IMG/VR virus record: IMGVR_UViG_3300011335_000173
Coordinates: 1 to 24,740 of that record
Direction: 5' to 3' (one strand)
DNA length: 24,740 bases
Source of the DNA: a virus
Taxonomy: Duplodnaviria > Caudoviricetes
The translations under genes were made by a program, and so were the position numbers. The notes below the pieces were generated by a model, which worked only from the letters and a program-made list of their open reading frames with translations, did no database searches and was not told the origin of the DNA. Position 1 is the stretch's first letter, and every line of letters starts with the position of its first letter. Positions 6,297 to 24,740 of the stretch are shown here, piece by piece.

Positions 6297-6807
6297 ACCC
6301 GGAGTCCCTAACGCAAGGGACTACATCGGCAACGCAGACGGAGCATCACCAGCTCCACGCGCAGGCATGAACGAGTTCATCCGTCAAGTGCTACATCACT
6401 CAAATGGCGCATTCGTCAATCTTGGAAGTTGGGGTCAGCGCGATGTCAAAGGGAAACCCGGAACCCTAAGCGTCCACGCCACCGGACGAGCATGGGATGC
6501 TGGTTTTACCACAAGCGAAAAAAACCCGAACGCATCACGCAAAACGGCATTGCCATTCATTGAAAAGATGGTTGCCAATGCCAACGATTTAGGAATCCAA
6601 ATGGTCATTGATTACTTCCCTAAAGAGTACGGTCGCGCATGGCGTTGTGATCGACAAGTTTGGAAAAACTACGACACCAAAACCGTGTCAGGCGCACCGG
6701 GCGGTCGGTGGTTCCATATTGAGATCTCTCCACAAGCTGCCGACTCGGTGATCTGGGTAAAAGCCGCATTTCTAAAGGTCTTCGGGGAAATCCCACCCAA
6801 GGCTTGA
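6277..6807 (+). CDS. Endolysin, M15-like zinc peptidase
   Basis: SxHxxGRAxD motif (SVHATGRAWD) plus downstream FHIE; paralog at 21312. Confidence 0.8.
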   Translation: MAIARAKPGVPNARDYIGNADGASPAPRAGMNEFIRQVLHHSNGAFVNLGSWGQRDVKGKPGTLSVHATGRAWDAGFTTSEKNPNASRKTALPFIEKMVANANDLGIQMVIDYFPKEYGRAWRCDRQVWKNYDTKTVSGAPGGRWFHIEISPQAADSVIWVKAAFLKVFGEIPPKA

Positions 6808-6847
6808 TCTATGTTCTAGGGTCGGAGTACCGACAAAAGGACAGGCA
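6803..6847 (+). promoter_or_regulatory. Putative promoter/operator region for the non-structural operon
   Basis: TAGGGT (TAnnnT) followed by inverted repeat GTCGG-AGTA-CCGAC (6821-6834); B has TAAGGT and GTCGAATTACCGAC at the same place. No well-spaced -35 seen. Confidence 0.4.
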
Positions 6848-7024
6848 ATGACTGAACCCCAGATAGTGGATTACAGCGTCTATACAGGAGTGATGGACAA
6901 CGGCCAAGAAATCTTGGTGCAGATATTTACTAGCCCAGAGTCGGGCAAGTTCCTCATGGGACAAATCGCATTTAGATCGCATGCTTCTAGTTGGGGCGTG
7001 CCCATACCTTTGGAGAAACGATGA
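6848..7024 (+). CDS. 58-aa hypothetical protein, not in the ORF track
   Basis: MTEPQIVDYSVYTGVMDNGQEILVQIFTSPESGKFLMGQIAFRSHASSWGVPIPLEKR*; homolog at 21879..22055. Confidence 0.85.
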   Translation: MTEPQIVDYSVYTGVMDNGQEILVQIFTSPESGKFLMGQIAFRSHASSWGVPIPLEKR

Positions 7025-7530
7025 ACTACTTTGCAGAAAAAATCATTGGGCTAGTGCTTTGTACGGTATTTGGTTTTACGGTCGCTGTAGGCGCTCCTGA
7101 CGCGTCTGGTGCCCCGTCTGGCACCATTGCCCTAGCGCCTTTGGACGCCCAGAACTATTTGATTGAGCCGACTACAACCACCAGCTCAACGATCTACATT
7201 GACCCGTACACGTCAGCCTGTGAGCAGTTCAGCGCGCTCGCCATAAACCTTGGTTGGCCTGCCGATCAGCGCACCGTGCTTGAATCAATCATGTTCAGAG
7301 AGTCGCGCTGCATACCTAACGCGGTCAACAGCAAAGACCCAAACGGTGGGTCGCGTGGCCTTATGCAGATCAACGGATTTTGGACGCCGTGGCTCATTGA
7401 GCGCGGAATCATCACAAGCGCAAAAAACCTGTTACAGGCTGATGTTAATTTGCGCGCAGGATTAGCAATTTACAACTACGGGGTCGAGCGATACGGCTAC
7501 GGCTGGGGGCCATGGAGCGCAACAAAATGA
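7021..7530 (+). CDS. Secreted or membrane-anchored lytic transglycosylase (SLT family)
   Basis: ATGA-coupled start at 7021; N-terminal hydrophobic segment, Thr-rich linker, RES catalytic Glu and GLMQIN motif. Confidence 0.85.
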   Translation: MNYFAEKIIGLVLCTVFGFTVAVGAPDASGAPSGTIALAPLDAQNYLIEPTTTTSSTIYIDPYTSACEQFSALAINLGWPADQRTVLESIMFRESRCIPNAVNSKDPNGGSRGLMQINGFWTPWLIERGIITSAKNLLQADVNLRAGLAIYNYGVERYGYGWGPWSATK

Positions 7531-7790
7531 GCGAAGGTACTGCATACAACCAAGGCGAACTGACCGAAGAAACACGCAAACTTGTGCTTGACTCAACAGC
7601 AAACGCAAACCACACAATGGCAATCTTCAATTTGATTGACGACATTATGGCGGTCAGCAAAAACCCACACGCAAGCATCATTCAACGGCTTAAGACAATG
7701 AAAAACCAGTTGTCATTAGAAGACCCGATGCCGCTTTACGATGTGACTACACTCGATCTTGCAATCAAAGCACTACAAGCACATTCCTAA
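7527..7790 (+). CDS. Conserved hypothetical helical protein
   Basis: ATGA-coupled start; highly similar to 22555..22818. Confidence 0.75.
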   Translation: MSEGTAYNQGELTEETRKLVLDSTANANHTMAIFNLIDDIMAVSKNPHASIIQRLKTMKNQLSLEDPMPLYDVTTLDLAIKALQAHS

Positions 7791-7811
7791 CCGACACAGG
7801 AGATTCCGACA

Positions 7812-8210
7812 ATGAAAACATGCACAATTTGCAAAGGCTCAATCGCCTACCCAGACATACAAGGCAAAACACACTTTGTATGTGACGGCCGTGTGCCGGT
7901 CAGAAAACAAGCACCATTTATCCAAGGCATGTTGGCGTCACAATCGTCAGCAGATGCGCGATGGACACGCGAAGAACAAAACAAAGTTGATGCAGCGATC
8001 TTGCACGTTGCGCGCACAAAAGGGTTCTTCACATCAGACGACATCTGGAAATATTTAGGCGACCAGTTCCCTGTCACTAAGGGCATTGCTGGACGCTTGA
8101 ACGCAGCTGCACGCCGTGGCCATATTCGCAACACAGGTGAACTGGCATACGCCCAGCGCGGTGGCGCGCATGACCATGCTCAACGTCTAAGCGTTTGGGC
8201 AGGCATCTAA
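7812..8210 (+). CDS. Putative DNA-binding protein (N-terminal CxxC...HxxC, then wHTH-like domain)
   Basis: CTIC...HFVC followed by FTSDDIW...IAGRLNAAARRGHIRNTG...VW, a winged-helix-like pattern. Confidence 0.5.
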   Translation: MKTCTICKGSIAYPDIQGKTHFVCDGRVPVRKQAPFIQGMLASQSSADARWTREEQNKVDAAILHVARTKGFFTSDDIWKYLGDQFPVTKGIAGRLNAAARRGHIRNTGELAYAQRGGAHDHAQRLSVWAGI

Positions 8211-8758
8211 TGGGCTTTGACTTAAGCAACTACGAAACAGTTGAGCAACGGCTAGTGCGTTGGTGGGCTGCATATCCCAACGGGCGCGTGTACACCTGCA
8301 TGATGAACTACACGGGCGATGCTTGCGTGTTCTATTGCGAACTGTACGCCGACAAGGACGACAAGGTGCCAGTCGCAACAGGCTACGCAGAAGAAATCAA
8401 AACAGATCGTGGGGTCAATGCGACTTCATTTGTTGAAAACGCAGAAACAAGCGCAATCGGGAGAGCAATCGGCAACTGTGCGCTCGGGTCAAACGGTACG
8501 CCAAGACCGTCACGCAATGAGATGCAAAAAGTCGAGCGTCTAGGTGGGCAGGAACAGTCAACAAACAAGGCGCACATACCCTCTGGTGCATTCGCTACAC
8601 CTAAGCAAATTGGTTACATCAAGAAACTGGCCAAGGATGCCAACCTTGACGATTTGGGATTGTTGGAGTTAATTCATCGCCAATTGAATGATGACAGCGC
8701 GGTGCTTGAGCTGCTGAAATCTCACGAAGCCAGCAAGATTATTGAGGTGCTGAAATGA
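8210..8758 (+). CDS. Rad52/Sak-like single-strand annealing protein
   Basis: YETVEQRL...ATGYAEE...VENAETSAIGRA motif; C-terminal ATPKQIGYI; paralog at 23186. Confidence 0.75.
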   Translation: MGFDLSNYETVEQRLVRWWAAYPNGRVYTCMMNYTGDACVFYCELYADKDDKVPVATGYAEEIKTDRGVNATSFVENAETSAIGRAIGNCALGSNGTPRPSRNEMQKVERLGGQEQSTNKAHIPSGAFATPKQIGYIKKLAKDANLDDLGLLELIHRQLNDDSAVLELLKSHEASKIIEVLK

Positions 8759-8877
8759 TGACGTTTCTGATAGTCAACATTGCAGGCATCTTGCTTGGAC
8801 TCATGTTGACCTTGTTTGTGATGATGTTTGCCGAAGACCCAAGAACAACCGCTGGACGCAAAAGGGGAAAGAAATGA
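8755..8877 (+). CDS. 40-aa single-TM peptide with a basic tail (genome A only), not in the ORF track
   Basis: MMTFLIVNIAGILLGLMLTLFVMMFAEDPRTTAGRKRGKK*; ATGA overlaps on both sides. Confidence 0.65.
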   Translation: MMTFLIVNIAGILLGLMLTLFVMMFAEDPRTTAGRKRGKK

Positions 8878-9020
8878 CATTAGAAGAACTAATTAGCGCG
8901 ATTGAACGTTTGCAAACCGTTTACAACTCAATGGTTGAAGAAGATCAGCGCGAAGCAAAACAGTACGTGCGCTGGGCAATCAAGCGTCTGGCTGACAAGG
9001 CGTATATGGCTGCGTTATGA
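8874..9020 (+). CDS. 48-aa helical hypothetical protein (genome A only), not in the ORF track
   Basis: MTLEELISAIERLQTVYNSMVEEDQREAKQYVRWAIKRLADKAYMAAL*; ATGA overlaps on both sides. Confidence 0.7.
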   Translation: MTLEELISAIERLQTVYNSMVEEDQREAKQYVRWAIKRLADKAYMAAL

Positions 9021-9361
9021 AGATTGACCCAAAGATCAGCGAAGCCGACTTTAAGGACATGGTGATCAGTATTGCCAAACGGTATGGCTGGTTAGTCCAT
9101 CACGATCTGCCGGCACAGAACACTCGAGGCAAATGGTTGACCAATGTTCAGGGTGATGCAGGGTTTCCTGATCTGTTCATGGTGCACCCGTTTCAAGGTG
9201 GTAGGCCGTTGGTGATAGAACTGAAAGCCGAAAAAGGGAAGGTAACACCTGGGCAAAAGATTTGGTTAAATGCTTGCGAGATGGCAGGTTGTCATGCAGC
9301 TGTGTGGAAGCCCAGCGACATGGAATACATCCTGTACACGTTAAGCAACCCGAGAGCGTAA
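9017..9361 (+). CDS. VRR-NUC domain nuclease (PD-(D/E)xK, resolvase-like)
   Basis: GFPDL...IELKAEKGKVTPGQKIWL motif. Confidence 0.85.
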   Translation: MKIDPKISEADFKDMVISIAKRYGWLVHHDLPAQNTRGKWLTNVQGDAGFPDLFMVHPFQGGRPLVIELKAEKGKVTPGQKIWLNACEMAGCHAAVWKPSDMEYILYTLSNPRA

Positions 9362-9582
9362 ACAATCGGCTAGTAGCACGACCTAAGCCATTCGCACGGC
9401 AGTTGGTGACACACGGAAACGTGGGTAGATCGGCGCGTCCCGAATCATGCAAGACGAAATGAAACGGGCGAAGCGTCGAGGCGAGCCGTAAACATAATCG
9501 GCTAGTGAGTGCAAAGGGAACCAGGATGGGCAATCTGGTGGGTGGAGCATTCACACACATATGTTTCATTGGTTCGCATAAG
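9362..9582 (+). ncRNA. Candidate structured non-coding RNA of unrecognised class (copy A)
   Basis: Intergenic; conserved with 24103-24324 with compensatory changes in six helices; G-U pairs and a GAAA loop favour the + strand. Confidence 0.75.
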
Positions 9583-9599
9583 GTAAAGGTTGATAAATA

Positions 9600-9694
9600 A
9601 AAACACACAGACACGGAGACACACACATGAGTCCGACATCATCACAAGGACAAGGCGCGCAAGCGCCGCGTCAGCGCAAGCGGAGCGCGCGAGC
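9600..9694 (+). other. AC-rich tract and GNA/GNRA-loop hairpin cassette (candidate ssDNA signal/origin, or 3' part of the RNA)
   Basis: GAC-aa-GGCGC-GCAA-GCGCC-gc-GTC (9649-9672) and GCGGAGC (9680-9686); covarying copy at 24390-24426. Confidence 0.5.
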
Positions 9695-11437
9695 ATGACA
9701 CGCAAACTAACCGAACACGACACAGCAATTTACAAACAGGCCAGAGCAGAACTACTGCGCGACCAACCACTCTGCCATTGGTGCAAACGCAACACAGCAA
9801 CAGAACTAGACCACCTAGTTGAAGCAGACAAAGGTGGAACAATAGAAGACGGATACGTTGCAGCATGCAAACCATGCAACAGCGCTCGAGGCGCCACATA
9901 CCGAAACAAAAAACTTGCACAAGCAAAACAAAACCGTGAGAAAGCAATAAACGATTTTTTATACGCAACCGAGATGCCCCCGAGCCCATCGTTCTTTTTC
10001 TCCCCGAACGACGACGACCAGCCCGAACTGGCTGCGATCGGTCATGACCAGCCGAGACTGGCAACGATTAGCCCGGATCAGCTTGGATCGCATGTTGAGT
10101 CTGTGGTGGAGTGGGCTCGCAAGTTCATGCAGATTGAATTGATGGAGTGGCAAATCTCAGCATTGAGAAACCAACTTGCATTCTCTGATGAGGCTGGCGT
10201 TGAGCTTGTGACTCGGACCTCATTGGTCTCATGCGCGCGCCAACAGGGAAAATCAGTTGCTCTTCGAGCTCTATCTGGCTGGTGGCTTACCGAGATGCCA
10301 AAGATCCGTGGAGAGAAACAAACCGTGCTCTTGATGGCACACCGACTTGATTCCGCTGCACAGATTTATGAAGAAATTGCCGACATCCTTGAGCAATACT
10401 TTGGCGCAAAACTTACGCGCTCATACGGTCGTCTAGCTGCAAAACTTCCAGACGGATCCAAGCTTCTAGTCCGATCCGCCAAGCCCAATGCAGCGCACGG
10501 TCTTTCGGTAGATCTTGCGCTTGTAGACGAAGTGTGGGGAATTGACGAAGAAGTGATTGACGGTGGCATCACGCCAACTATGCGCGCACGACGCTTTCCA
10601 CTTCTCAGCATGTGGTCCACTGCCGGCACCGAAGAATCCAAGGTCATGATGCGCTACCGAGAGATGGGTCTTCGTCTGATTGACACACATCAGCCGACAA
10701 ACTTCCACTTTCGTGAATGGTCTCCGCCACCAGATCTTGATCCGATGGATCCGATTGCATGGGCATATGCGAACCCTGCGCTCGGCAAGACGCTCGAGAT
10801 GTCCACTATCGAGTCAGAAGCACAGCTCCCCGACCGCGCATCCTTCCTCAGAAGTAGCGTAAATCTTTGGATAGCAACTGACCGAAGTTGGCTACCACAG
10901 GGTCTCTGGTCGCAGCTTGTCACTTCTGAGCCACTTCCAGCTGGGGGAGTGGTTGCCGTTGAGGTGGATTTCAACGACTCGCACTACTACGCCACAAGAT
11001 CAGTGCTTTTGCCGGACGGTCGGATCGGGGTCACGGTCGCGTTCACTTGTGACACACAGACACAGCTCTGGGATCACATTGCCAACCTTGCCAAAGATCC
11101 GAGCATCCAGTTCGCGCTCACTCCAACGATTGATCTCCAATGCCCACCATCCATTGAGCGTCGGCGTGTCGTAGTTGGTTATGCAGAGATCTTGAAATGG
11201 ACACCAGCGGTCCAAGGATTGATCCGTGAACGACAGATCGTCCACACAGGAGAAATGGCATTAGCAGAGCATGTCGTGCGCGCAGTTTCAGTTCGGACAC
11301 AAGGCTCTATTGCTGTGAGCTCTCAGCGTTCGCCCGGACCCATCGAGCTTTGCAGGACGATGATCTTCTCAAGCGCGATCGTTGCCGGCAACAAACACAG
11401 CCGAGGGAAGCCACAGCTCGTCGTTGTTGCCAACTAA
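9695..11437 (+). CDS. terL: HNH endonuclease-terminase large subunit fusion
   Basis: Likely start ATG 9695; CHWC...DH...CKPCNSARG HNH domain; Walker A ARQQGKS, Walker B LALVDE and STAG coupling motif in one uninterrupted frame. Confidence 0.9.
   Translation: MTRKLTEHDTAIYKQARAELLRDQPLCHWCKRNTATELDHLVEADKGGTIEDGYVAACKPCNSARGATYRNKKLAQAKQNREKAINDFLYATEMPPSPSFFFSPNDDDQPELAAIGHDQPRLATISPDQLGSHVESVVEWARKFMQIELMEWQISALRNQLAFSDEAGVELVTRTSLVSCARQQGKSVALRALSGWWLTEMPKIRGEKQTVLLMAHRLDSAAQIYEEIADILEQYFGAKLTRSYGRLAAKLPDGSKLLVRSAKPNAAHGLSVDLALVDEVWGIDEEVIDGGITPTMRARRFPLLSMWSTAGTEESKVMMRYREMGLRLIDTHQPTNFHFREWSPPPDLDPMDPIAWAYANPALGKTLEMSTIESEAQLPDRASFLRSSVNLWIATDRSWLPQGLWSQLVTSEPLPAGGVVAVEVDFNDSHYYATRSVLLPDGRIGVTVAFTCDTQTQLWDHIANLAKDPSIQFALTPTIDLQCPPSIERRRVVVGYAEILKWTPAVQGLIRERQIVHTGEMALAEHVVRAVSVRTQGSIAVSSQRSPGPIELCRTMIFSSAIVAGNKHSRGKPQLVVVAN
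9955..10006. other. Putative cos site / A-B junction inside the HNH-TerL linker
   Basis: T-tract, GCCCCCGAGCCC core, pyrimidine tract; the window ends at the homologous position in B; composition switches in this neighbourhood. Confidence 0.5.
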
Positions 11438-11446
11438 GATACGCGC

Positions 11447-11499
11447 GGAGTCGCGTGTCAAACCTTTCGTCGGAGAAGGTTCCCCCGATGCGCGACTCC
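11447..11499 (+). promoter_or_regulatory. Long intergenic stem-loop between terL and portal
   Basis: GGAGTCGCG/CGCGACTCC outer stem and AACCTT/AAGGTT inner stem; no U-tract. Confidence 0.6.
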
Positions 11500-11534
11500 A
11501 CCAAAAGCCGACCCATCTATGGAAGAGTAAAGAC

Positions 11535-12638
11535 ATGGCATTATTCGAGCGCAAAGTATCTAAAGCTGCAATCTCTGAGCCAGTAGGCAAAGCAGCTGCA
11601 GCAGGTGGTGGATACACCGGTCAATCAATGATTGGCGCTTACTACACCTACCAAGAAGGCGAAGCGCGTAATCGCGCAATGAGTGTTCCAGCAATTTCAC
11701 GCGCACGCGATCTCATGGCATCAGTGATCTCTTGTATGCCGTTGATCATGTACAAAGAAACATGGAACGAACAAACACAAGAAATGGACACCACTCGACT
11801 TGCTCCGCGCAGCTGGCTCCGTCGCATGTCGCCATCCATCCCAAACTCCACACTCCTCAGCTGGTTATTCGACGATATTTTTTTCTATGGTGTGGGCTAC
11901 CTTGCCATTACAGCGAGGACTCAAGATGGCTATCCCTCGGAGTTCGAGCGTCTTCCAGCCGGATCCATCACTCGTCGCGATCAGTCAGGTCCCGTCTTCT
12001 TTGCACCATCCAAAGAGCTCTACTTCCTCGGACAAGAACTTGACTACCGCAATGTCGTGCAATTCATCTCAGGCATCCAAGGCATTATCTATCAATCGCC
12101 CGGAGTAGTAAATACAGCACTCAAGCTGGAGTCAAGCAGGTACAGGAATGCGGAATCGCTGATTCCGTCTGGCGTGCTCCGGCAGACCGGCGGCGAGCCC
12201 TTGAGTCCCTCTGAGCTCAGCGCAATCGGCGCGCAGTTCGAGTCGGCGCGCAAACTCAATCAGATCGCTGTTCTCAATGAGTTCCTATCCTTCGAGCCAT
12301 CACAAGCAACACCAGACAAGATGCTCCTCATTGACGCTGCAAACTATCAAGCACTTGAATGTGCGCGACTAACCAATGTTCCGCCATACCTAGTCGGCGT
12401 GAGCACAGGATCATACTCGTACCAGTCATCACAGCAAGCACGCGCGGACCTTTACATCTTCGGCGTGAAGGCTTACGCGGAATGCATCGCCAACACACTC
12501 TCGATGGATAATGTATTGCCAAGAGGAACGATGGTGAAGTTCGACGCTCACGAATATCTCGAAGAAAATTATCTTGCCGACACAATGGACAGAGAAGACA
12601 TGCCGGAAGAAAACACACAAGAGGAAATCGCATCATGA
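11535..12638 (+). CDS. Portal protein (HK97 family)
   Basis: Likely start ATG 11535; AMSVPAISRARDLMASVI, PSGVL and ARLTNVPPYLVG motifs; lies between terL and the protease. Confidence 0.9.
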   Translation: MALFERKVSKAAISEPVGKAAAAGGGYTGQSMIGAYYTYQEGEARNRAMSVPAISRARDLMASVISCMPLIMYKETWNEQTQEMDTTRLAPRSWLRRMSPSIPNSTLLSWLFDDIFFYGVGYLAITARTQDGYPSEFERLPAGSITRRDQSGPVFFAPSKELYFLGQELDYRNVVQFISGIQGIIYQSPGVVNTALKLESSRYRNAESLIPSGVLRQTGGEPLSPSELSAIGAQFESARKLNQIAVLNEFLSFEPSQATPDKMLLIDAANYQALECARLTNVPPYLVGVSTGSYSYQSSQQARADLYIFGVKAYAECIANTLSMDNVLPRGTMVKFDAHEYLEENYLADTMDREDMPEENTQEEIAS

Positions 12639-14221
12639 TCCAATTCACAGCTCAATCAGTCAGCATCGATGCAGCTGGACCAGACGGTCAGCCACGACGC
12701 ACCATCACCGGCATTGCAGTTCCCTATGGCGTAGAAGCGACCGTTTCGGACGGGACATCGGTCCGCGTACTCGAGGGAGCTCTTCCAGTTGATGGCAAGG
12801 CTCCTCGTCTGCTTCTCAATCATTCGACAGATCAGGCGATCGGCATCGTCACAGCACGCCAATCCACGCCAGACGGGATGCTCTTCACAGCCAAGATCAG
12901 CGACACCCAGATGGGAACCGAAGCGCTCACTCTCATGAAAGACGGAGTTCTTGATTCAGTTTCAATTGGAATTACCCCGACACAGTTCAGCTACGACGAA
13001 GCCGGAACGATGGAGATCCGCGCTGCTATTTGGAGCGAGTTGTCGGTCGTCGCAATCCCAGCATTTGCAGGAGCTCAGATCACAGAAATCGCTGCGAGTA
13101 TCCACCAACCAGATCCCGAAATAAGCAATACTCAAGAAGTAGTCCAAGAACAGGAGCAAGAAATGTCAGAAGCAACCGAAGTACAAGCACCAGTCGAGGC
13201 ATCAATCCCGACCCCAATGTTCGCATCAGCAAAGCGTGAGCCACGCTTGCCAAGTGCAGCAGAGTTTGTTGCAGCAATGCACAAGGGCGGAGAAGTTGCA
13301 GCCAACGCAAACCGCGTATGGAACGATTACCGCGCCTATCACAGATCAGATATCGAAGCAGCAGCTGGAGACAATGTGCTCAGCAATGATGCCGGTATAG
13401 TCCCTGTTCCAATTTTGGGACCTGTCTTCGCGGATATCAACTACATCGCTCCAGTGTTGAATGCACTTGGTACACGCGCGATGCCAAACGGCAACAGCGG
13501 TGCAACCTTCATTCGCCCAACTTGGACGACTCACCCAACGGTCGCACAGCAATCAACCGAACTCACAGCAGTATCGGCAACGACTGCCGTGATTGCAGCG
13601 AACACGGTTAGCAAAGTGACCTTTGCCGGTCAAGCACAGCTCTCGTATCAGGTAATTGACTTTACCGATCCGAACGCAATGCAAATCATCATCCAAGATC
13701 TTGCTGGTCAGTACCTCACCGCAATTGACAACTACGCTGCAGACAACTTGCTTGCAGCAGCATCGTCAGATGGCGTGTGGGACCTAACCCCAGAAGACTT
13801 GATGAAGTCAATCTACGATGCAGCAGTAACGATCTCTGCAGCAACGAACTACTTGCCGACTCACATGTTTGTGGACCCAGCAACTTGGGCTCTTATGGGT
13901 CAGCTTGTAGATACCACGAAGCGTCCAATCTTTCCAGCACTCGGTGCACCGGGATTGAACGGTCAGAACTCACTCGGCGCAGGCTCAGCTGCATCATGGT
14001 CAGGCATGAACCCACTCGGTCTTGAGATTGTTGTGGACAACAAGTTCGCTGCCAAGACCATGGTCATCATGAACAAGAACGCATTCGAGATCTACCGTCA
14101 GGATCGTGGCTTGCTCAGCGTGGAAGTTCCTTCAACCTTGGGTCGTCAGATGAGCGTGTTCGGATATGCAGCAACATTCGCTGCAAACTCGAGCATGATT
14201 CGCAAGATCACACAGGCTTAG
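12635..14221 (+). CDS. Prohead protease-major capsid protein fusion (HK97 fold)
   Basis: N-terminal ITGIAVPYG, LLLNH, SVSIG and ELSVV protease motifs; acidic linker; HK97-like capsid C-terminal domain. Confidence 0.9.
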   Translation: MIQFTAQSVSIDAAGPDGQPRRTITGIAVPYGVEATVSDGTSVRVLEGALPVDGKAPRLLLNHSTDQAIGIVTARQSTPDGMLFTAKISDTQMGTEALTLMKDGVLDSVSIGITPTQFSYDEAGTMEIRAAIWSELSVVAIPAFAGAQITEIAASIHQPDPEISNTQEVVQEQEQEMSEATEVQAPVEASIPTPMFASAKREPRLPSAAEFVAAMHKGGEVAANANRVWNDYRAYHRSDIEAAAGDNVLSNDAGIVPVPILGPVFADINYIAPVLNALGTRAMPNGNSGATFIRPTWTTHPTVAQQSTELTAVSATTAVIAANTVSKVTFAGQAQLSYQVIDFTDPNAMQIIIQDLAGQYLTAIDNYAADNLLAAASSDGVWDLTPEDLMKSIYDAAVTISAATNYLPTHMFVDPATWALMGQLVDTTKRPIFPALGAPGLNGQNSLGAGSAASWSGMNPLGLEIVVDNKFAAKTMVIMNKNAFEIYRQDRGLLSVEVPSTLGRQMSVFGYAATFAANSSMIRKITQA

Positions 14222-23186: not shown

Positions 23187-23764
23187 TGGCATTCGATCTA
23201 AGCAACTACGAGACAGTCGAGCAACGCCTAGTCCGATGGTGGGCTGCATACCCAGACGGTCGGATCCACACCACGATGATGAACTACACAGGCGATGCTT
23301 GCGTGTTCTACGCGCAGCTCTACGCGCACAAAGATGACAAAGATCCAATCTCAACTGGCTATGCCGAAGAAATCAAAACAGATCGCGGAGTGAACTCAAC
23401 ATCATTTGTCGAGAACTGTGAGACAAGCGCAATCGGGCGCGCCATATCAAACTGCCCGATCCAAGGACACGGAAACGGTCCACGACCTTCTCGTCAGGAG
23501 ATGGAAAAGGTCGCTCGGCTGGGGGGCAACCTAGCGCCCACCACTGATCGCCCAGCCGGGCAACCATCCATCCAAGAACACATCCCTCGAGGAGCGTTCG
23601 CCACACCAAAGCAAATCGGCTACATAAAGAAGCTGGCAAAAGACAAAGGTCTAGACGATCTTCGCTTACTTGAGTTGATCCATCGTGAACTCGGTGATGA
23701 CAGCGCGGTTCTTGAGCTGCTCAAATCACATGAAGCGTCCAAGATTATTGAAGTGCTCAAGTGA
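23186..23764 (+). CDS. Rad52/Sak-like single-strand annealing protein (genome B)
   Basis: Homolog of 8210..8758. Confidence 0.75.
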   Translation: MAFDLSNYETVEQRLVRWWAAYPDGRIHTTMMNYTGDACVFYAQLYAHKDDKDPISTGYAEEIKTDRGVNSTSFVENCETSAIGRAISNCPIQGHGNGPRPSRQEMEKVARLGGNLAPTTDRPAGQPSIQEHIPRGAFATPKQIGYIKKLAKDKGLDDLRLLELIHRELGDDSAVLELLKSHEASKIIEVLK

Positions 23765-24102
23765 AGCCTAATTTGACGATGAGTGAAGCCGATCTCAAAG
23801 AGGTCGTGATCAGTGTCGCAAAGCGTTACGGCTGGCTTATTCATCACGATCTGCCGGCACAGAACTCTCGAGGACGCTGGCTGACCAATGTCCAAGGCGA
23901 CGCAGGCTTCCCCGATCTGATCTTGCTGCATCCCATCTCAGGCAAGTTGCTTGCTGTGGAGCTCAAAGCAGAGAAGGGAAAGCTCTCACCATTACAGAAG
24001 CGCTGGCTCATGGCATTCGATGCTGGCTCGCACTTCAATAGCGTCTGGAAGCCCTCTGACATGGAGTACATTCTCTACACTCTGAGCAACTTCCAGCTCT
24101 AA
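23761..24102 (+). CDS. VRR-NUC domain nuclease (genome B)
   Basis: GFPDL...VELKAEKGKLSPLQKRWL. Confidence 0.85.
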   Translation: MKPNLTMSEADLKEVVISVAKRYGWLIHHDLPAQNSRGRWLTNVQGDAGFPDLILLHPISGKLLAVELKAEKGKLSPLQKRWLMAFDAGSHFNSVWKPSDMEYILYTLSNFQL

Positions 24103-24324
24103 ACAATCGGCTAGTCGCATGACCTACACCGTCGCAAGGTGATCGGGTAACACACGGAAAGCGTGGGTAGATCGGTGCGCCCTCAATCATGCACGACGAA
24201 GTGAGCGAGGCAAAGCACCGAGGCGAGTCGTGAACATAATCGACTGATGAGTGCAAAGGGAACTGGGATGGGCAATCCAGTGGGTGGAGCATTCATCCCT
24301 GTATGTCTTCTCGGTTCGCATAAC
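24103..24324 (+). ncRNA. Candidate structured non-coding RNA (copy B)
   Basis: Covarying homolog of 9362-9582. Confidence 0.75.
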
Positions 24325-24327
24325 ATA

Positions 24328-24435
24328 CACACAAACAAACAAAGCAACAGACACGGACACACACACATGAGACCGACATCACTGACAAGGGCAAGCCACG
24401 CAGTGGCGCGCCAGCACAAGCGAAGCGCGTGAGTC
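24328..24435 (+). other. AC-rich tract and GNA-loop hairpin cassette (copy B)
   Basis: GGC-aa-GCCAC-GCA-GTGGC-gc-GCC (24390-24412) and GCGAAGC (24420-24426). Confidence 0.5.
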
Positions 24436-24740
24436 ATGGCTCGAGGACGAACAACAGACAACACCGAGTATCGGAACAACAGAGCAGCATTACTCAAAGG
24501 ACAACCGCTCTGCCATTGGTGCCAACGCAAGACCGCTGATACTGCAGATCATCTAGTTGAAGTTGATCGCGGTGGTGACAACTCGCTGTCCAACCTCGTG
24601 CCGGCATGTCGAGAATGCAACAGCAGACGCGGAACCCAATACAAGAGCGCGCGCGACCGCCAACGAATCCACGACCGAGCCGAAGCAACACGAACCATCG
24701 CACAACGAGAACCGATTCTTTACACAGACCCTTCCTCGCC
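24436..24740 (+). CDS. HNH domain (5' part of HNH-TerL), running off the window end; not in the ORF track
   Basis: MARGRTTDNTEYRNNRAALLKGQPLCHWCQRKTADTADHLVEVDRGGDNSLSNLVPACRECNSRRG...ILYTDPSS, with no stop before the end. Confidence 0.9.
   Translation, partial: MARGRTTDNTEYRNNRAALLKGQPLCHWCQRKTADTADHLVEVDRGGDNSLSNLVPACRECNSRRGTQYKSARDRQRIHDRAEATRTIAQREPILYTDPSS

Follow-up and report, generated by a model that had tools for sequence, protein, structure and literature searches.

A covarying structured RNA of unrelated freshwater phages, proposed to act in RNA-primed replication

RNA II of the ColE1/pMB1 plasmids, about 550 nt in length, represents the R-loop type of replication origin, and is the described system against which the phage element reported here is best viewed. 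The likeness lies in a folded RNA with a G-run near its 3′ end, in promoter-like sequence ahead of it in podovirus-like carriers, in the want of an initiator match in near-complete carriers, and in a short motif, GGGYGGAGC, with CGAGCGYAGCGAG downstream of it in some clades; ColE1 has GGGGGGCGGAGC at 1176-1187 (L443). The two differ in that the element measures approximately 150-270 nt among its homologues, shows no RNA I analogue and resides in tailed phages of probable Actinomycetota, where priming is a proposal, and in that our core model of the element, R1, gave no match on ColE1 at E-values up to 2. Structured plasmid motifs of 223-349 nt, designated ARRPOF, PAGEV and GEBRO, have been proposed to function in plasmid replication, according to PMC5737381; unlike these, the present element has no Rfam match and belongs to phages, not plasmids. 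The single plasmid match obtained by BLAST was distant and covered the downstream hairpins only, at E-values of 0.08-3.

Amongst phage systems, the element resembles the phi29 pRNA in being a phage RNA with a four-base loop pairing, located near packaging genes, but differs from it in having no Rfam match, in accompanying a terminase of the HK97 type with genome ends inside a gene, and in occurring also beside TerS. As at the T7 concatemer junction, transcription is aimed at the genome end in two carrier families; unlike T7, a host polymerase and a folded RNA would be involved here, and the geometry fails in the siphovirus fragments G003 and G005. The raiA motif, GOLLD, ROOL and HEARO are comparable as compact pseudoknotted RNAs whose role is obscure or protein-linked, and GOLLD and ROOL are phage-borne according to 10.1101/2024.12.08.627333. 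The element is, however, much smaller than GOLLD and ROOL and has no Rfam match, and it has neither the closing P1 nor the second pseudoknot of raiA as described in PMC12968392. Unlike the situation with HEARO or OMEGA RNA, the HNH neighbour is of the terminase type (fused to TerL), is not always adjacent and is missing in podovirus-like carriers, with no IscB/IsrB-type neighbour and no Rfam match.

The first-pass annotation, made on the 24,740-nt stretch of viral DNA analysed here (the window), had regarded the RNA as novel, and no Rfam family was found to match it. Searches with cmscan of the window, nine distant loci, the sister-clade element and a podovirus-like copy returned chance matches only; RF03072 (raiA) and RF02032 (GOLLD) were not matched in the full-library search, and single-family searches, run without a positive control, were empty. 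Three variants of the element, compared with GenBank phages by blastn, produced no match. HDV-like, hammerhead and twister topologies were ruled out by inspection against their consensus structures. An interdigitated double T-loop, a fold that occurs in RNase P and the T-box, was considered for the P6 internal loop and rejected, as the 3′ strand GGGGGGC is without the needed A in other clades. No description of the RNA was found in the published literature, mainly freely accessible papers, nor was there a motif match in the available supplements of Fremin 2023 (PMC10690425), alignment archives and one table aside; parts of the RNA may be among the IMG/VR candidates of that study, without a function.

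Copy 1 of the RNA, about 190 nt on the plus strand (9362-9554), was delimited by conservation and scored 83 bits against R1, in whose training set this copy was included. Its order was found to be 5′ ACAAT, P2, P3, GGTAGA, P4, the pseudoknot strand, P5, and P6 with the 3′ G-run. The P2 hairpin (9380-9409) presents the pseudoknot loop TCGC at 9392-9395, and its CCTAAG/GTTGG internal loop resembles a GNRA-tetraloop receptor, docking being conjectural. P3, a four-pair GNRA hairpin that was 100% paired in our alignment A3, is followed by the single strand GGTAGA (together 9412-9429), which was near-invariant (210 of 216 unique cores) in scans where it doubled as the search anchor under the pattern G[GT]T[AT]G[AT]. 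The P4 arm (9430-9479) is variable, with 19-62 nt in homologues, on a conserved basal helix in which 7/7 pairs vary on both sides. GCGA at 9481-9484 provides the 3′ strand of the pseudoknot, the P5 hairpin (9484-9503) has an AAAC-containing loop and is missing from short forms, and the P6 domain (9505-9554) includes an unpaired GGG at 9516-9518 and the 3′ G-run GGGTGG at 9540-9545, the predicted hybrid-forming stretch. A 3′ G-run was present in 302 of 305 homologues; a control window taken upstream had one in 52 of 290. The core common to the carriers comprises 5′ ACAA, CA, the P2 loop TYGC, ACAC, the P3 GNRA hairpin, GGTAGA, a variable P4, the GCR pseudoknot strand, an optional P5 and a G-run-terminated 3′ domain; it appears as a compact tertiary core with invariant unpaired bases. 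Four blocks first described as conserved (AATCATGC, AACATAAT, AAAGGGAA and GGTTCGCATAA) proved to be clade-specific, hence the conserved element stops near 9554 and not at 9582 as initially delimited.

The six helices and the CACG-GAAA-CGTG hairpin of the first-pass annotation were recovered, position for position, in both copies of the RNA, and the covariation claimed between the two genomes extended to a wider set of homologues. In A3, which consists of 20 diverse long-form homologues chosen by hand, 91.8% of cells pair compared with 29-42% in slid controls, and 32 of 43 pairs had changed on both sides, a result equalled by 0/500 shuffles, a figure that is not a probability as the sequences are mutually related. 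The main helices were also recovered unaided by RNAalifold. Folding energy by itself was modest (z of -2.4 and -1.6), and the case for a structure therefore rests on covariation.

Two pseudoknots had been suggested. That between TCGC (9392-9395) and GCGA (9481-9484) covaries, being concordant in 260 of 263 related sequences, a count that omits 12 unparsed rows and 42 rows in which the parser chose the wrong loop, and to which one pattern scan that demanded TTGC plus GCAA contributed. TCGC was partnered with GCG in 162 instances and with GCA in two, TTGC with GCA in 98 and with GCG in one. Within protein-anchored loci alone, 110 and 7 were concordant, 0 discordant and 12 unparsed, and the switch between TCGC/GCGA and TTGC/GCAR was seen in several lineages (e.g. 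L274, L488 and L669). The second pairing, GCAYGA with TCATGC, was abandoned: only 68.7% of cells paired, there were zero two-sided changes and 435 of 500 shuffles were equally good. Plus-strand polarity had been proposed from G·U pairs, and the excess of G·U over A·C cells (75 versus 12), together with a GNRA-type loop on P3 in 161 of 171 parsed protein-anchored cases, does indicate a plus-strand RNA.

The window was found to contain two related small siphovirus-like genomes joined end to end, with a spacing of 14,741 nt between RNA copies 1 and 2. The genomes joined within 1-24740 are two different 14.7-kb genomes, and similar double records of 29-31 kb, which may be assembly chimeras, were seen in the relatives L035, L041 and L322. 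Copy 1 is flanked by a VRR-NUC nuclease gene (9017-9361, plus strand; PF08774, E = 1e-8), whose stop codon abuts the RNA, and by a gene encoding an HNH endonuclease-large terminase fusion (HNH-TerL; 9695-11437, plus strand). Between the RNA and the latter gene lie, on the same strand, an A/C-rich spacer (9555-9626) and a 23-codon ORF read from the sequence (9627-9698), the stop of which overlaps the HNH-TerL start. The second genome contributes, also on the plus strand, a VRR-NUC gene (23761-24102), RNA copy 2 (24103-24297) and, at 24367-24740, a 21-codon upstream ORF (24367-24432) with the 5′ part of an HNH-TerL gene cut by the record end. Both short ORFs, of 21-23 codons, end at the HNH-TerL start. 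GC-rich hairpins with GNA loops lie inside the 23-codon ORF at about 9654-9694 and are possibly a primosome-assembly-like DNA signal. A GC-rich motif within the short ORF, CAAGCGRAGCGCG, recurs in other clades with a differing reading frame, which suggests a signal at the DNA level.

The HNH-TerL fusion is real and common, with many relatives of 575-600 residues having both domains, and a separate TerS was not found alongside it. Contig ends pile up in the linker between the two domains, 44 of 102 falling 557-607 nt past P3, and contig starts cluster at fixed linker codons in two other clades; a physical genome end (cos) was accordingly placed inside the HNH-TerL gene, in the linker at 9970-10020. 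HNH is fused in frame to the large terminase, and the gene, interrupted in its linker by this end, would be whole only once the ends join. Contig depth in one metatranscriptome run was high over 6800-10000 of the window and lower over 10005-12900, i.e. past the presumed genome end, a drop that, as contig depth only, is a weak hint; the capsid gene dominated contig depth in another run.

The initial description of an unrecognised structured RNA thus held, whereas its presence in just two genomes did not, the spread being far wider. The element was found in 80/80 loci anchored on the VRR-NUC protein of copy 1 and in 73/80 anchored on that of copy 2; of the seven misses, three stop at the gene and three have another gene inserted before the end of the locus. 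Carriers outside the window's family, located by pattern scans and R1, include a distant HNH-TerL clade (18 loci), the siphovirus fragments G003, G005 and L488, and a podovirus-like family of 39-41 kb. In the latter, 80 loci were collected, eight of which were left out because the terminase begins at the contig edge, and the element was present in 60 of the 72 searched, in every case on the strand opposite to the terminase gene and some 100-1,900 nt upstream; the 12 misses mostly had short flanks, with L673 (3.8 kb flank) a clear miss. Metagenome pattern loci yielded the element in 45 of 120 instances. The carriers are siphovirus-like and podovirus-like phages of 14-41 kb. Each genome has the element a single time, at a boundary of the same kind and with variable neighbours, the module having been swapped between unrelated phages. 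It is common to at least three otherwise unrelated kinds of uncultured freshwater phage. Searches with R1 of ColE1, the cultured actinophages Decurro, Coeur, BonaeVitae and phiPsal1, and 13 sister-clade loci, and of five MAGs (incomplete genomes), gave no match. WhiB genes in carriers and actinophage terminase matches suggest that the host is probably in the Actinomycetota; MAG bins containing the terminase were taxonomically mixed, and so did not name the host.

In podovirus-like carriers, an extended -10 motif was located just upstream of the element in 35 of 45 cases, versus 0 of 41 controls, along with a conserved CAAC start region and a T tract downstream of the element. The extended -10 was present in two of 175 mini-phage carriers, and no promoter-like site was found on either strand of window positions 9200-9800. 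In many podovirus-like copies (e.g. L665:1820-1870, minus strand), an additional 5′ hairpin, whose loop is GCTGGGAAG, lies between promoter and core. Past the G-run, podovirus-like carriers (L594:2600-2800, minus strand, and relatives) have a conserved element, GCTA(A/C)CGCCCT...CGGTTG, which comprises hairpins with TAC/TTC loops together with a T tract.

In a sister HNH-TerL clade, the corresponding position is occupied by another folded element, weakly covarying (5 of 53 pairs) and matching neither Rfam nor R1. This element (L284:1880-2075 and relatives, L283-L361) includes a GGTGCAAATCC hairpin resembling a T-loop, and has GGGGG on its 3′ side. A related terminase that lacks HNH was also observed at L578:9905-11299, within a 1.3-Mb Acidimicrobiales contig with no R1 match nearby.

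Of the functions put forward in the first-pass annotation, that of a replication primer is the best supported, though indirectly. We propose, at a probability of roughly 45%, that the RNA is a cis-acting, ColE1-like pre-primer that lets host enzymes begin copying of the phage genome. Host RNA polymerase would transcribe the RNA, the folded core would keep the 3′ G-run hybridised to its template, and the R-loop thus formed at the G-run would serve to prime or open DNA replication, with no need for an initiator, primase or polymerase of the phage. Trimming by RNase H, or strand displacement, would precede extension by Pol I, and the helicase would be loaded by host PriA or, in some lineages, by an upstream-encoded protein of the G39P fold. 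We infer each of these steps, namely the discrete transcript, the R-loop, processing by RNase H and Pol I, and helicase loading.

A stretch of rG:dC is essential for the persistent hybrid in ColE1, according to PMC4412123, and the near-invariant G-run is as predicted for a transcript kept on its template by a stretch of rG. The proposal is also consistent with the gene content of the carriers. Amongst 22 carrier records at least 90% complete, nine of them genomes of 35-41 kb, none matched an O-like initiator (phrog_270), DnaB, Pol A or Prim-Pol, while positive controls did, a comparison made within carriers and for these four families. PHROG scans of most of the larger ORFs revealed recombination genes, SSB and, in a single genome, one helicase-family fragment. 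The protein encoded at 7812-8210 of the window was assigned to no family, and small unassigned proteins such as this could be initiators. The sister clade counts in favour of priming, in that its different element also ends in a hairpin plus GGGGG and 0/5 of its genomes match the initiator family. The promoter-like sequence of podovirus-like carriers likewise speaks for priming. Against priming stands the small G002 clade, where an O-like initiator is encoded about 800 nt upstream of the RNA, itself present in 4 of 5 contigs. The lack of a promoter in the window clade, the patchy downstream hairpins described below and the absence of homology to RNA II also weigh against it, as does the course of the RNA toward a genome end, which would suit a role in packaging equally well.

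A candidate helicase loader is encoded next to the RNA in some carriers. The modelled N-terminal domain of this product had as its best match the SPP1 G39P helicase loader (1no1; Z 7.2, rmsd 2.0, 64/67 residues), followed in the PDB by a DnaD-like domain (Z 6.2); with a Z below 8 for a small helical bundle, the modelled match is not at a convincing level. Pfam made no call on the protein, and BFVD matches (rows 11 and 15) were weak. In G003, G005 and L488 the gene for it stops 10-35 nt short of the RNA, and in 10 window-clade contigs it lies between the VRR-NUC gene and the RNA; it is absent from the window itself. A GCGNAGC hairpin motif was found downstream in 8 of 29 representatives, a peak just as high being seen in the coding region 400 nt upstream, and opposite-strand GNA hairpins were seen by eye downstream in podovirus-like carriers. 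The window had no DnaA boxes close to the RNA. An antisense analogue of RNA I was likewise not seen, with neither an Rfam match nor any promoter-like site between 9200 and 9800 in either direction, although a divergent form may exist.

An alternative is that the RNA acts in genome maturation, as a cis signal whereby transcription through the RNA toward the genome end would pause RNA polymerase or open the DNA and recruit the terminase, in the style of the T7 concatemer junction, in phages without a free small subunit. Transcription-coupled packaging has a precedent in T7, as given in PMC3276506, and an A/C-to-G/T switch was detected ahead of the RNA, 566-745 nt past P3 in 65 of 73 mini-phage loci, where it is the mapped genome end, and 539-728 nt past P3 in 32 of 39 podovirus-like loci. 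The same switch occurs at the record ends of the cultured phiPsal1, and terminases are fused in both main families (HNH-TerL and HTH-TerL). This alternative nevertheless appears unlikely, as in G005 the RNA lies away from a TerS-TerL pair of the ordinary kind, in G003 it is followed by 6 kb or more of other genes, podovirus-like contig ends scatter, and three other cultured cos phages are without a clear switch. The podovirus-like terminase at L582:4558-6540 has an N-terminal HTH with a weak TerS-like match (E = 1.6e-6), and the HTH-TerL of these phages is apparently a second way to lose the free small subunit.

More specific ties to neighbouring genes, suggested when the RNA was first noticed, did not survive the comparison of carriers. 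A link to HNH-TerL is not supported in view of the podovirus-like carriers, in which the same RNA is antisense to and upstream of a different terminase family. A pRNA-like packaging cofactor fails as a general role because G005, with a phrog_83 TerS (E = 4e-9) beside its TerL, carries the RNA all the same, which is therefore no general substitute for TerS. Nor is the RNA a general late-operon leader, given that some contigs have no sense gene behind it, the genes there in G004, L723 and others facing the opposite way. Its presence both with a TerS and without a sense gene behind it indicates that its role is not tied to one gene.

Alternatively, the RNA may act in trans as a free phage molecule, comparable to GOLLD, ROOL or raiA in its compactness, and bind a host protein (RNA polymerase or a defence factor, for instance), or it may serve as a nascent antiterminator. 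Such a role would agree with the compact core and its invariant unpaired bases, the own promoter and downstream T tract in podovirus-like carriers, the variable neighbours and module swapping between unrelated phages, and coexistence with an initiator and with TerS. We hold it to be as improbable as the maturation signal, since each genome has a single copy at a boundary of like kind, neither the near-invariant 3′ G-run nor the loader-like neighbour nor the missing replication genes are accounted for, and metatranscriptome contigs had no clear excess over the flanks. Contigs from RNA libraries do cover the element, but the window has a comparable profile in what is probably a DNA run, and the depths, taken from assembled contigs only, sum over strains, and this coverage consequently does not demonstrate expression.

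A self-cleaving ribozyme, or a riboswitch-like leader controlling HNH-TerL, would be compatible with the small pseudoknotted core with invariant nucleotides and with the short ORF coupled to the HNH-TerL start behind the RNA in the window. We consider this very unlikely, as no such family matches, genes are at times inserted between the element and HNH in the sister clade, and no gene starts close behind the element in podovirus-like carriers; the ribozyme option of the initial description found no positive support. That the structure is one of ssDNA is scarcely credible: covariation alone cannot separate it from RNA (PMC5737381), but the GNRA loops, the G·U excess and the promoter-like sequence directly upstream in podovirus-like carriers all argue for RNA.

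The element represents a genuine, new class of RNA whose core is compact and covaries, and is most likely a form of RNA-primed replication, this function being our proposal. A bolder version, which we regard as possible yet on balance doubtful, is that it constitutes a portable RNA-only replication origin with a fold unrelated to ColE1 RNA II, by means of which hundreds of abundant freshwater phages of unrelated families drop all replication proteins, and that in two families this transcript, being directed at the genome end, might link replication with packaging. For the question of how replication starts in small tailed phages without a recognisable polymerase, primase, helicase or initiator, the RNA provides a defined candidate element of 200 nt. 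If it is a primer, it would represent a second, independent fold for RNA-primed replication, and possibly a protein-free replicon for the Actinomycetota.
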